From contig NC_006624.1 in assembly GCF_000009965.1 (NCBI RefSeq), positions 720,001 to 752,000 on the forward strand: 32,000 nucleotides of DNA, given 5' to 3'. A program made the translations under genes and the position numbers. Positions 21,336-23,616 of the stretch are shown one piece after another. This DNA is from Thermococcus kodakarensis KOD1. GTDB lineage: Archaea > Methanobacteriota_B > Thermococci > Thermococcales > Thermococcaceae. Below the pieces are notes generated by a model that made no database searches, was not told the origin of the DNA, and was given only the letters and a program-made list of their open reading frames with translations. Each line of letters begins with the position of its first letter. Positions within the stretch are counted from its first letter, which is position 1.

Positions 21336-21548
21336 ATGGAAGATATGGAGAGCCAGGTTGAGAGACTTTTCCTGTACGCCCAGAACCTCCTCTTGAAGCT
21401 TCGGCTGAAGGAACTTCAAAAGGATCACGTTACACTTGAAGACATTGAGAGAATTGTTCAGGAGGAGTTAACTGTTGACGAGGATGTTGAAGACATAACA
21501 GAGATAATTCGTCAGATGAGGGAGAGAGATTATGAGTTTGAGTACTGA
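21336..21548 (+). CDS. Acidic 70-aa protein overlapping the start of the PIN gene; putative cognate antitoxin
   Basis: Position only: it sits directly upstream of and overlaps vapC by 17 nt, with small size and an acidic C-terminus. I recognise no fold motif. Confidence 0.4.
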   Translation: MEDMESQVERLFLYAQNLLLKLRLKELQKDHVTLEDIERIVQEELTVDEDVEDITEIIRQMRERDYEFEY

Positions 21549-21807
21549 CGTGGTACTGGATACCAGCGTTCTCGTTAAGGGTATTTTGCCCCCTCTGCGT
21601 AGGAAACGTGATGATGTTTATTATAGACAGCTCTCCCTTCATTTGAAGGCCAAGGAACTTTTGAATAACGTTCAGGACGGAATATTCTCGCTTCACGAAC
21701 CCGTTGTAGCCCTTATTGAAACTTCAACCGTGCTGTGGAGACTTTCGAAAAGTGAACGAATAGTCAATGTTGGGATAGAGTTTTTGGAGGCACATTCCCT
21801 CTTTTAC
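21532..21807 (+). pseudogene. vapC: PIN-domain (VapC-type) toxin gene, 5' part, interrupted by the IS element
   Basis: MSLSTDVVLDTSVLVKG (first acidic residue) ...VVALIETSTVLWRL (second). The reading frame then runs into IS left-end sequence and stops at 21850-21852. Confidence 0.75.
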
Positions 21808-21823
21808 TTTTTTCTTCTGAAAG

Positions 21824-21844
21824 CCTCGCCCTTTAGGGCGGGGA
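21824..21844 (+). repeat. Left subterminal hairpin CCTCGCCCTTTAGGGCGGGGA
   Basis: Stem CGCCC/GGGCG with TTTA loop. Identical 21-mer at 23395-23415. Confidence 0.85.
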
Positions 21845-21890
21845 TGCAGTAATCAAAAGACCAGCCTGAAAGCGAGAAAGCACTTCACCA

Positions 21891-21925
21891 AAATACTTAA
21901 ATACTAAACCATACTACTAAATACT
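21891..21925 (+). promoter_or_regulatory. Four phased ATACT pentamers (three as AAATACT) upstream of the RHH gene: promoter/operator candidate
   Basis: ATACT begins at 21893, 21901, 21911 and 21921 (spacing 8, 10, 10). TAAATACT occurs twice (21898-21905, 21918-21925). Confidence 0.45.
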
Positions 21926-21935
21926 GGTGAGTGGA

Positions 21936-22091
21936 GTGGGAGTAATCACAATCTCCGTTGATGATGAAGTCGAAAAGAAATTCAGAGAACTCGTGGAGAA
22001 AAAATACGGGAAAATCAGAGGGGCTTTAGGTGTTGCGGTAACCGAAGCAATTAAACTCTGGATTAAAAAAGTCGAAAGCGAGGAAAAATGA
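21936..22091 (+). CDS. Ribbon-helix-helix (CopG/Arc/MetJ-like) small protein, translationally coupled to tnpB
   Basis: Below the track cut-off. Own translation: (M)GVITISVDDEVEKKFRELVEKKYGKIRGALGVAVTEAIKLWIKKVESEEK*, a beta-strand followed by two helices. GGTGA lies 5 nt upstream of GTG 21936 (alt GTG 21927). The stop TGA overlaps the tnpB ATG (ATGA at 22088-22091). Confidence 0.55.
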   Translation: MGVITISVDDEVEKKFRELVEKKYGKIRGALGVAVTEAIKLWIKKVESEEK

Positions 22092-23383
22092 AGCGAACAG
22101 TAACAGTAAAACTACAACCCTCAAAAGCCCAAGAGAAAGCTCTTTCCGAGTTAGCTCTTATTAGCTCCAAAGTTTGGAACAAGGTGAACTACCTAAGAAG
22201 AAAAGAATTCTTCGAGGGCAAACCAATAGACTTTAACAAAACCGAGAAAATAGTCTATGAAGAGTTTAAATCCGAGATAGGCTCGGCAACAGTCCAGCAA
22301 ATAGCGAGAAAGAACGCCGAAAGCTGGAGAAGTTTCTTCTCACTCCTTCGGAACAAGCGGAACGGAGAACTACCAAAATGGTTCAAGCCAAAACCCCCGA
22401 ACTACATCAAGGAAGGAGGCTTAATAATCCTCAGAAACGACCAATACAAAATTGAGGGAAACAAGCTAATCCTCAAAGGCCTCGGAAAATTCAGAAGACT
22501 GGAAGTCCAGTTCAAAGGGAGAATCCACCTTAAAGGCAAGCAAGGTCGCTTAGAGATAACTTTCGACCCTGTAAAGCGAAAATGGTATGCTCATATTTCA
22601 TACACGGTGGAGGAGAAACTAATTAACGGTAAGTGGGTTAAGCTTCCAAGAGAACCCTTAGGCAACCTTTCAGCAGGCATAGACTTGGGAGTGAACAACC
22701 TAATGGCCGTTTACGTTGAGAATGGAGAGAGTTTCTTGGTGAACGGTAGGCCATTAAAAAGTATTGATTTTTACTGGCAGAAGAGGATTGCAGAGTATCA
22801 GTCCAAACTTAACAAAAGCGGAGCTAAAAAGAGTAAGAAACTCTCCAGAATGCACCAGAAGGCCAAGCTTCAGGCGAAACACTACATTAACACGATGGTG
22901 AGACAAACCGTTGAGAAGCTTTATCATCTCGGAGTTTCGAGAATAATAGTCGGTTATCCGAAGGGGATAGCAAGAAACTCCGACAGAGGTAGGAAGCAGA
23001 ATTATCTCCTCTCCCACGTCTGGCGGTTTAACACGGTGATAAAACGGCTCAAGGAAGTCGCCGAAGAGTATGGTATTCAGGTTTTGGTTGTGAATGAGGC
23101 TTTCACTTCAAAAACGTGCCCCGTCTGCGGGAAGCCCCACGATGGGGCGAGATTTGTTCGGGGTTTGTTTAAGTGTCCCGCAACGGGGCTTATCTTCAAT
23201 GCAGACCTCGTTGGAGCGTTTAACATTTTGAGAAAGGCTGTAAAAACGATAACCCCGAGCCTCTCTGCTTTGTCAGGAGGTAGGGGTAATTGGCCGGAGA
23301 CCCGGCCAGAGGGGTCGAAGACCCGCTTTAAATTGGGTCTGAATGAGACTCCTCAAACCTCTCCGCCAATGGTGAGGGGTTAA
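22088..23383 (+). CDS. tnpB: TnpB (OrfB) RNA-guided RuvC nuclease of IS200/IS605 family
   Basis: 431 aa. RuvC-I GIDLGVNNLMAV, RuvC-II VVNEAFTSKTCPVCG, RuvC-III FNADLVGAFNILRKA. Zn-finger region CPVCG...KCPATG. Confidence 0.9.
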   Translation: MKRTVTVKLQPSKAQEKALSELALISSKVWNKVNYLRRKEFFEGKPIDFNKTEKIVYEEFKSEIGSATVQQIARKNAESWRSFFSLLRNKRNGELPKWFKPKPPNYIKEGGLIILRNDQYKIEGNKLILKGLGKFRRLEVQFKGRIHLKGKQGRLEITFDPVKRKWYAHISYTVEEKLINGKWVKLPREPLGNLSAGIDLGVNNLMAVYVENGESFLVNGRPLKSIDFYWQKRIAEYQSKLNKSGAKKSKKLSRMHQKAKLQAKHYINTMVRQTVEKLYHLGVSRIIVGYPKGIARNSDRGRKQNYLLSHVWRFNTVIKRLKEVAEEYGIQVLVVNEAFTSKTCPVCGKPHDGARFVRGLFKCPATGLIFNADLVGAFNILRKAVKTITPSLSALSGGRGNWPETRPEGSKTRFKLGLNETPQTSPPMVRG

Positions 23384-23394
23384 TTCGTTGGAAC

Positions 23395-23415
23395 CCTCGC
23401 CCTTTAGGGCGGGGA
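23395..23415 (+). repeat. Right subterminal hairpin CCTCGCCCTTTAGGGCGGGGA
   Basis: Identical to 21824-21844. It lies 12 nt after the tnpB stop and 9 nt before the inferred right end. Confidence 0.85.
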
Positions 23416-23424
23416 GGAGGTCAG

Positions 23425-23616
23425 TCGGATGTGTACCTAATGGATGAGGCTATGAAACTAGGTAAGAAAACTGGGGCCAGCGGCTTTGATGTTCTTTTCC
23501 TGGCCTGTGCAAAGGTCTGTGGAGCAGTCCTCATCACAGATGATCTAAAGATGTATGAAAAGGCGAGAGAAATAGGAATAATGAGCCAGCTTCTCAGGGA
23601 GATTTCATCCCCATGA
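23425..23616 (+). pseudogene. vapC: PIN-domain (VapC-type) toxin gene, 3' part
   Basis: SDVYLMDEAMKLGKKTGASGFDVLFLACAKVCGAVLITDDLKMYEKA carries the third and fourth PIN acidic residues. It is in the same frame (mod 3) as 21532-21807. Confidence 0.75.

Follow-up and report, generated by a model that had tools for sequence, protein, structure and literature searches.

A VapB-like ribbon-helix-helix gene in the tnpA slot of an IS200/IS605-type element of Thermococcus kodakarensis may encode a promoter autorepressor

Organization of the element and its host gene

The 32,000-nucleotide stretch of the Thermococcus kodakarensis KOD1 genome analysed here (the window, whose coordinates equal KOD1 coordinates minus 720,000) contains an IS200/IS605-type insertion element in which a small ribbon-helix-helix (RHH) gene, TK0849, precedes and overlaps tnpB. 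TK0849 lies 3′ of a mapped transcription start site (TSS) of the element, is constrained, has strand-helix-helix topology, is homologous to VapB antitoxins and occupies a slot that alternates among sister elements between RHH genes, the transposase gene tnpA and nothing. Its product is a candidate repressor of the element's own promoter. The small open reading frame (ORF) corresponds to annotated TK0849 (741936..742091; BAD85038.1) and tnpB to TK0850 (742088..743383), both in Table S2 of Jaeger 2014 (PMC4247193). The encoded protein matches a T. kodakarensis protein at 100% identity and carries the UniProt name 'XACb0070 ribbon-helix-helix domain-containing protein'; a literature search on TK0849 itself found nothing. 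The features of the locus are listed in Table 1.

Table 1. Features of the TK0849 element and its host gene in window coordinates.
Feature	Position	Strand	Description
5′ part of host PIN/vapC gene TK0848, outside the element	21532..21807	+	Weak Pfam PIN match
TTAC target/target-adjacent motif (TAM)	21804..21807	+	Directly 5′ of the left end
Left end (LE)	21808..21935	+	T-rich start, subterminal hairpin, conserved 'gagaaagca', transcription factor B recognition element (BRE)/TATA box, TSS, leader
LE hairpin	21824-21843	+	Arms CCTCGCCC/GGGCGGGG
BRE/TATA box	about 21890-21903	+	Within LE
Four ATACT copies, candidate operator	21893..21925	+	−33..−29, −25..−21, −15..−11 and −5..−1 relative to TSS 21926
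RHH gene TK0849	21936..22091	+	51 amino acids from GTG 21936; alternative GTG 21927 gives 54 amino acids
tnpB gene TK0850	22088..23383	+	431 amino acids; NCBIfam guided_TnpB 2.4e-54, Pfam OrfB_IS605 and Cas12f1-like_TNB
omega/reRNA ('HgcC3')	23246..23440, 3′ end approximate	+	From internal tnpB start, through the right end, into flanking guide
Right end (RE)	23385..23424	+	Hairpin 23394-23414; invariant terminal GGAGGAGGTCAG at 23413-23424
3′ part of host PIN/vapC gene TK0851, outside the element	23425..23616	+	Pfam PIN C-terminal half, E 0.014

The element spans 1617 bp (21808-23424) and is inserted after TTAC, without target duplication, in a vapC-like PIN gene. Homology among copies sets in immediately 3′ of TTAC here and of TGAC or TTAC at other loci, while at the right boundary the sequences diverge directly after GGTCAG in about 60 copies. 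In-silico excision of 21808-23424, joining 21807 to 23425, restores a 155-amino-acid PIN ORF from TK0848 and TK0851; these mapped ends and the restored ORF together identify the locus as an IS200/IS605-type insertion. Subterminal hairpins at both ends, a tetranucleotide 5′ of the insertion and the lack of a target duplication are the traits of that family present here. The window contains exactly two copies of the 20-mer CTCGCCCTTTAGGGCGGGGA, at 21825 and 23396, and each folds as a DNA hairpin. The LE is common to RHH-bearing, RHH-less and tnpA-bearing copies and is nearly identical across these cassette types. A Y1 (HUH) tnpA is absent from the window's copy and is found in the same slot of sister elements, so the window's element is non-autonomous. 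RHH-bearing copies sit in differing genomic contexts, and T. litoralis and T. sibiricus have several each, which suggests that the RHH-bearing form spreads as a unit.

TK0849 is a constrained gene

A preliminary description of this DNA, made from the letters alone, had proposed an ORF of 51-54 codons whose stop overlaps the tnpB start, and both features are confirmed: the frame extends from GTG 21927 or GTG 21936 (GVITISV-type start) to 22091, and its TGA stop (22089-22091) and the tnpB ATG at 22088 together form ATGA. GTG 21936 is most likely the true start, since most homologues begin with MGV there, the KOD1 annotation starts at 741936 and the primary TSS lies at 741926 (window 21926). The ATGA is partly intrinsic to tnpB, as the ATG-A(AR) start is also found in RHH-less copies.

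Variation at this junction is seen in two relatives. In T. litoralis L120 (CP006670.1, L120:2655-2690), the closest relative, an A-run one base shorter removes the ATGA stop, and the RHH ORF gains 8 codons (60 amino acids in total), giving a 23-nt overlap with tnpB; the RHH gene of L109 stops one codon early (TAA ATG). Additionally, published differential RNA sequencing (dRNA-seq) records an antisense TSS on the minus strand at window 22023, inside the RHH gene, with TTTAAT on the same strand at 22050-22055, about 27-32 nt upstream. RNA from this site would span the promoter and the RHH 5′ end.

Conservation was analysed in 19 distinct RHH-bearing copies collected from metagenome-assembled genomes (MAGs), metagenomes and genomes, a MAG-only scan having been supplemented by exact-protein look-ups. 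The copies fall into subtypes A ('GVITISVDDEVEKKF', that of the window), B ('KRLDVYLPDELDKKF') and C ('GKITVVVDDDIEREF'), with B and C 52-59% identical to the window protein. Substitutions carry the synonymous bias whose absence the preliminary description would have counted against the gene, with pairwise dN/dS of 0.01-0.12 in subtype A and synonymous sites that are saturated or nearly so. The counts of variable columns at codon positions 1/2/3 are 17/14/45 for subtype A and 13/12/42 for subtype B. The RHH protein is more conserved than the accompanying TnpB (mean identity 85% versus 75%; higher in 37 of 39 pairs). In subtype B, moreover, the 45 nt upstream are 78-93% identical, compared with 42-76% for third codon positions. 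By its substitution pattern, TK0849 is a real gene under strong purifying selection.

These data bear directly on the reading in which the protein is without function and the ORF serves only for translational coupling to tnpB or is a remnant in decay. The ATGA overlap and the low read counts of TK0849 are compatible with such a role, and tnpB is probably leaderless in RHH-less copies, so that the presence of the ORF changes how tnpB is translated. However, strong purifying selection across three subtypes, conservation above that of TnpB and a fold predicted with high confidence render this reading barely credible, and the selection pattern excludes a purely translational role.

Predicted fold and family assignment

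AlphaFold, supplied with a 46-sequence alignment, predicts an extended segment (residues 1-9), a first helix (10-24), a glycine turn and a second helix (30-50) with a pLDDT of 93.2, in agreement with the strand-plus-two-helices RHH layout read earlier from the translation. The N-terminal strand, G-V-I-T-I-S-V, presents alternating hydrophobic residues (I/I/V), and the inter-helix turn follows the pattern Y-G-x-x-R/K-G-x-L-G, of which G29 is invariant in element-borne and VapB-like members. The residues of the strand predicted to face DNA vary by subtype (V/T/S, V/N/S, R/D/Y, K/T/V). The top Foldseek matches are the RHH domain of the antitoxin PrpA (TM 0.66) and ParD antitoxins, with E-values above 1 for this small model.

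Profile searches, the check suggested in the preliminary description, gave a divided answer. Pfam and NCBIfam scans of the window protein itself return no RHH match and no curated family. Among its relatives, RHH_6 is the sole Pfam family matched repeatedly (12 of 46, best 5.9e-5, below gathering), and a profile search of PDB sequences yields only 2k6l (E 0.075; chain titled 'Putative uncharacterized protein'). We take 2k6l to be XACb0070, an RHH protein, an identity in keeping with the UniProt name of TK0849. As the window protein has no direct family match, the RHH assignment rests on structure prediction and on relatives; on the predicted model, the RHH fold may be regarded as established and the family as RHH_6/XACb0070-like, with curated-family support that is weak but consistent.

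Relationship to VapB-type antitoxins

The nearest relatives outside the elements are proteins of 77-84 amino acids with 44-61% identity, encoded directly upstream of and overlapping PIN genes (Pfam PIN 7e-16 to 2.5e-8) in Methanoregula, Methanolinea, Altiarchaeota and DPANN archaea. They align with TK0849 without gaps over residues 1-47 and then continue for about 30 residues, whereas TK0849 ends at residue 51. Positions D10, F16, R17, G29, A34, A38 and W42 are invariant in both TK0849 and these relatives. An exhaustive profile search gave 1112 cluster representatives; among the best 150 of the 1112, most are 75-90 amino acids long and about ten are short-form. The gap-free match to residue 47 and the missing C-terminal segment indicate that TK0849 corresponds to a VapB-type antitoxin reduced to its DNA-binding half, the toxin-binding tail being absent. 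TK0849 thus resembles archaeal RHH-type VapB in its N-terminal domain. It differs in lacking the C-terminal extension and in being followed by tnpB rather than by a cognate PIN gene, the surrounding PIN gene being the insertion target.

Alternation of cassettes in the tnpA slot

To place TK0849 among sister elements, 80 metagenome loci with close relatives of the window's TnpB were fetched, about 71 of which have enough upstream sequence. An RHH gene with the same ATGA overlap is present in 16 of these ~71 loci, and a Y1 tnpA occupies exactly the RHH position in ~15, behind the same hairpin, 'caggaaagc' block and TATA box. The tnpA-bearing sisters (Pfam Y1_Tnp 8e-42) have the same left end and TnpBs 75-83% identical. 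In the remaining loci the promoter leads straight to the tnpB ATG, so that about 55% of sister tnpB genes are without a partner; two other KOD1 copies are likewise RHH-less, their TnpBs being 87% and 90% identical with the same catalytic residues. The RHH gene and tnpA are mutually exclusive in the slot. The initial proposal that the RHH gene sits in the tnpA position is therefore supported by the sister elements, and the survey it called for recovers the upstream RHH ORF, the ATACT repeats being conserved only in part.

In a neighbour-joining tree of 66 distinct TnpBs, built without bootstrap, the four slot states are interleaved, which suggests that the cassette has been lost or exchanged repeatedly. 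TnpA for the RHH-bearing copies is presumably supplied in trans by sister elements with near-identical ends.

The tnpA-bearing copies show a peculiarity of their own. In every one (L041:1470-1530, L044, L064, L081), ACG takes the place of the tnpB start codon ATG; an in-frame TGA lies three codons upstream in the tnpB frame, and the last 8 tnpA codons overlap tnpB across GAGTTAAAACGAAGAGG. The ACG codon and the upstream stop leave tnpB without a canonical start in these copies, where it may use non-AUG initiation, or a −1 frameshift may produce a TnpA-TnpB fusion.

The ancestry and the slot together bear on whether TK0849 and TnpB could form a toxin-antitoxin-like pair, as put forward for related archaeal genes by Altae-Tran et al. 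2023, in which the RHH protein would bind TnpB and block guide/target binding, TnpB acting as the toxin. The RHH family is an antitoxin family whose relatives lie upstream of PIN toxins, the ATGA overlap couples the RHH gene tightly to tnpB, and Altae-Tran et al. describe archaeal RHH/MazE-TnpB pairs together with an AlphaFold co-fold. However, TK0849 stops at the very point from which its VapB relatives continue into the toxin-binding tail, and the slot alternates with tnpA. The published clade, moreover, has an Asp-to-His change in RuvC-III and is described as immobile, while here the element is an insertion and D373 of TnpB, in NADLVGAFNI, is invariant in 66 of 66 relatives. D199 is also retained; in 66 of 66 relatives Gly289 stands in place of the canonical RuvC-II Glu, and Glu337, within D/N-E-A-F-T-S, is invariant in the same 66 of 66. 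Because partner-less tnpB copies with identical catalytic residues are abundant, including the two in KOD1, TnpB appears to need no antidote. With the tail missing and more than half of the sister tnpB copies partner-less, the addiction-type partnership raised as an alternative in the preliminary description is weak, and a toxin-antitoxin function is unlikely.

Promoter architecture and candidate operators

The primary TSS of the element, mapped by dRNA-seq to 741926 (Jaeger 2014 Table S2, PMC4247193), is followed by a 10-nt leader that contains GGTGA. It is preceded by the TATA box CTTAAATA at 21896-21903 and, before that, an A-rich BRE. ATACT occurs on the plus strand at 21893, 21901, 21911 and 21921, three of the copies as AAATACT, just as first described; of the helical phasing claimed for them, three of the four copies stand in 10-bp phase, the spacings being 8, 10 and 10 bp. 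With the TSS at 21926, the repeats tile the core promoter (−33..−1), overlapping the BRE, the 3′ half of the TATA box, the −15..−11 region and the initiator-proximal bases. Over the whole window ATACT is not enriched (31 seen versus 31.7 expected), but a cluster of four in 33 bp is uncommon for the local composition: any complex 5-mer occurs four times in 117 of 20000 dinucleotide and 7 of 20000 mononucleotide shuffles of the 56-nt stretch. No ATACT cluster is found at the omega-RNA promoter or elsewhere in the element, nor a second motif cluster in the 32-kb window.

Comparison of 19 RHH-bearing with 20 RHH-less promoters does not uphold ATACT as a conserved operator. The T. litoralis L120 copy carries ACACT, ATACT, ATACT and ATACA at the same positions (two exact and two one-mismatch copies), and L050 has two exact copies; this partial conservation, along with the presence of the motif in RHH-less copies, shows that ATACT is not an RHH-specific operator.

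The RHH subtypes instead have short repeats of their own downstream of the TATA box and ahead of the start codon, frequently with a 10-bp spacing. Specifically, subtype B has ACACYATA twice, 10 bp apart, in all five copies; subtype A has pairs of TACTAA, GTRTTTAAT or GGATTA; and subtype C has an inverted CCATATATA/TGTATATGG in L098, degenerate in L101 (two copies). In an exploratory measure of self-similarity at a 10-bp shift over the 44 nt upstream of the RHH start, all 19 of 19 RHH-bearing loci are positive (mean z +1.3), and the signal is seen in each of the five subgroups compared (A1-A3, B, C), whose sequences differ. It is absent in RHH-less (−0.31) and tnpA-bearing (−0.86) copies. At the level of the family, helically phased sites with subtype-specific sequences are thus weakly supported by the comparison.

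The same promoter data bear on two further readings. TK0849 might act mainly in trans, on the promoters of sister elements such as TK0298 and TK0495 (family-wide copy-number control) or on operators of host vapBC loci akin to its ancestor. In the RHH-less KOD1 copy L038, ATACTATACT lies downstream of the TATA box and ahead of the tnpB ATG, the cassette types have almost the same left ends, the RHH protein derives from VapB DNA-binding domains, and the bacterial RHH regulator Arc, discussed below, has weaker off-target peaks. However, the promoter downstream of the TATA box differs between RHH-bearing and RHH-less copies, the motif cluster is not repeated within the window and the vapBC locus interrupted here has an unrelated upstream gene, TK0847; a mainly trans-acting regulator therefore seems improbable.

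Alternatively, the RHH protein could be a transposition or homing accessory that, on left-end DNA, modulates excision or integration by a trans-acting TnpA or protects the donor site. The RHH gene lies within the left end of a non-autonomous element and excludes tnpA from the slot, and RHH proteins act as accessory DNA-binding factors in other mobile elements. IS200/IS605 transposition, however, proceeds through hairpins of single-stranded DNA, and the substrate of RHH proteins is the duplex. The repeats lie over the mapped core promoter and not over the hairpin, and we know of no precedent in the IS200/IS605 family for an RHH accessory factor. An accessory role is accordingly quite improbable.

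A model of promoter autorepression

The reading that we favour, with a rough probability of 0.55, is that TK0849 is an autorepressor of its element's promoter, derived from VapB, placed in a swappable slot and binding repeats phased at about 10 bp. TK0849 would be the first gene of a two-gene operon, the RHH gene and then tnpB, driven by the LE promoter. RHH dimers, or dimers of dimers, would bind the ~10-bp-phased short repeats between the TATA box and the TSS and exclude TBP, TFB and RNA polymerase, thereby blocking assembly of the pre-initiation complex. Both the synthesis of the RHH protein itself and that of the translationally coupled TnpB nuclease would be repressed, and this negative feedback would cap nuclease expression whatever the copy number. 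The repressor would have arisen from an RHH-type VapB through loss of the toxin-binding tail, leaving the DNA-binding half. Besides the promoter geometry, the family-level 10-bp signal and the bacterial Arc precedent discussed below, this ancestry counts in favour of the model, since the antitoxins in question are autoregulatory.

Several observations weigh against autorepression through these sites. The model draws on sequence, structure prediction and published TSSs, and from these we infer dimerisation, the binding site and repression by TK0849. No curated RHH family is matched above threshold, the Foldseek E-values exceed 1, and the residues that subtype A is predicted to turn towards DNA (Val, Thr, Ser) give few base-specific contacts. 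ATACT occurs 0-2 times in other RHH-bearing copies and equally 0-2 times in RHH-less copies. Part of the repeat array is shared promoter sequence, since RHH-less copies carry ATAC(T/C) repeats at the same place, such as ATACTATACT in KOD1 L038 and CATACCATAC in numerous further copies. All cassette types share the ccATAC site, and a second site coincides with the 3′ half of the TATA box. An alternative parsing of the array gives two TAAATACT units with a 20-bp offset (21898, 21918), and this unit was rejected as a specific site: TAAATAC is TATA-box-like, and the neighbouring TK0847 promoter has TAAATACA at −28..−21, its TATA position. Finally, the 10-bp-shift statistic was computed on related loci that amount to about five independent groups, shifts of 8 and 7 bp score 0.36 and 0.35 versus 0.38 for 10 bp, and subtype C is weak.

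A more elaborate form of the autorepressor model, which is speculative, holds that a recombining slot (tnpA, at least three RHH subtypes, or nothing) and a tail-less VapB are combined with copy-number-sensing repression through 10-bp operators that have coevolved with each subtype. Were this so, an RNA-guided homing nuclease would be repressed by copy number in polyploid archaea, and co-resident lineages would be regulated independently.

Comparison with known systems

The preliminary description knew of no characterised RHH-TnpB module, but such pairs have been published. Altae-Tran et al. 2023 (PNAS, PMC10691335) described archaeal RHH/MazE-TnpB pairs bioinformatically as putative toxin-antitoxin systems, transposon-associated Arc was first noted by Zedaveinyte et al. 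(10.1101/2023.11.20.567912), and Moon, Zedaveinyte, Wiegand & Sternberg (bioRxiv 28 Sep 2026, 10.64898/2026.09.24.754181) report that the 'Arc' RHH proteins of IS605 elements bind and repress the element promoter, with evidence from chromatin immunoprecipitation sequencing (ChIP-seq), reporter assays and mutagenesis that includes arc+tnpB-only elements. The pairing is hence already published and demonstrated in bacteria, and TK0849 represents an archaeal variant that was apparently recruited independently.

The T. kodakarensis element shares with bacterial IS605 Arc a protein of about 50 amino acids with an RHH fold, encoded inside an IS200/IS605 element and adjoining tnpB, as well as candidate repeats over the element's own promoter; arc+tnpB-only elements exist as well. 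It differs in its archaeal host and in a BRE/TATA promoter rather than −35/−10 elements. TK0849 also has the same direction as tnpB, overlaps it and replaces tnpA, whereas in many bacterial elements arc is co-encoded with tnpA and divergent from tnpB, a layout that TK0849 does not have. A comparison with P22 Arc gave an hhalign probability of 0.3%, and there is no Pfam Arc match; similarity to P22 Arc was consequently set aside as not significant. Since the nearest relatives are VapB-type and no Arc relationship is detectable, independent recruitment is suggested. By analogy, TK0849 may work like bacterial IS605 Arc, though it is not demonstrably in the Arc clade.

With the pairs of Altae-Tran et al., the locus has in common an archaeal host, a small RHH gene directly upstream of tnpB, a TnpB with a non-canonical catalytic site and a guide-RNA region at the 3′ end. 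The authors describe that clade as an immobile, putative toxin-antitoxin pair in which His replaces the RuvC-III Asp (RIIIr-4; PMC10691335), whereas TK0850 keeps Asp373 and has RuvC-II Glu replaced by Gly, and the element, with both ends intact, interrupts a gene. Membership in the RIIIr-4 RHH/MazE clade was rejected, by the clade's description, on the RuvC-III residue and on mobility. The combination of Gly289 with an invariant Glu337 in TnpB fits instead the 'RIIr-5' rearranged-site description of the same authors.

IS1341-type elements, with their HgcC/sot RNAs (Gomes-Filho 2015, PMC4615843; Jaeger 2014, PMC4247193), are likewise similar in their subterminal hairpins, a TTAC target without duplication, and tnpB with an omega RNA from an internal TSS; the TK0849 element differs in the extra RHH gene between the left-end promoter and tnpB. 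The Thermococcales RHH family (set apart from that of Altae-Tran et al. by description), its VapB ancestry and the three-way slot were not found described in the literature.

If the autorepressor reading is correct, archaeal and bacterial TnpB insertion sequences would have converged on a tiny RHH repressor at their own promoter, from different RHH lineages and on different transcription machineries. One insertion-sequence slot alternates between transposase, regulator and nothing, which bears on the persistence of non-autonomous TnpB elements. Moon et al. 2026 (10.64898/2026.09.24.754181) name native-host studies as what comes next. T. kodakarensis is a tractable hyperthermophile with defined in-vitro transcription and TSS maps, and could serve as a native host for the repression model.

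Guide RNA, TnpB zinc finger and the interrupted PIN gene

The omega RNA is transcribed, as 'HgcC3', from an internal TSS in TK0850 at 743246 (window 23246; Jaeger 2014 Table S2, PMC4247193), and the first bases of the TK0851 part, TCGGATGTGTACC..., form its predicted guide/target. Rfam HgcC (RF00062) matches 23289-23437 with 44.2 bits (E 3.4e-8) and sot0042 (RF02656) matches 23247-23415 (E 5.5e-8), both below the gathering score, so curated Rfam models under-detect Thermococcales omega RNA. A 'primary' TSS at window 23394 on the plus strand, assigned to TK0851, coincides with the first base of the RE hairpin and could be an omega-RNA processing site rather than a promoter. The zinc finger of TnpB, within the region of residues 344-366, has only three Cys (CPVC...KCPATG).

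The insertion interrupts the PIN/vapC gene formed by TK0848 and TK0851, whose 70-amino-acid upstream partner TK0847 has no family match (region 21336-21852, 23425-23616). TK0847, an antitoxin-like gene of this locus, was considered as a relative of the RHH gene and rejected, as it shows no likeness by eye and no family match. The landing of a VapB-derived gene in a vapC gene is probably a coincidence of the TTAC target.

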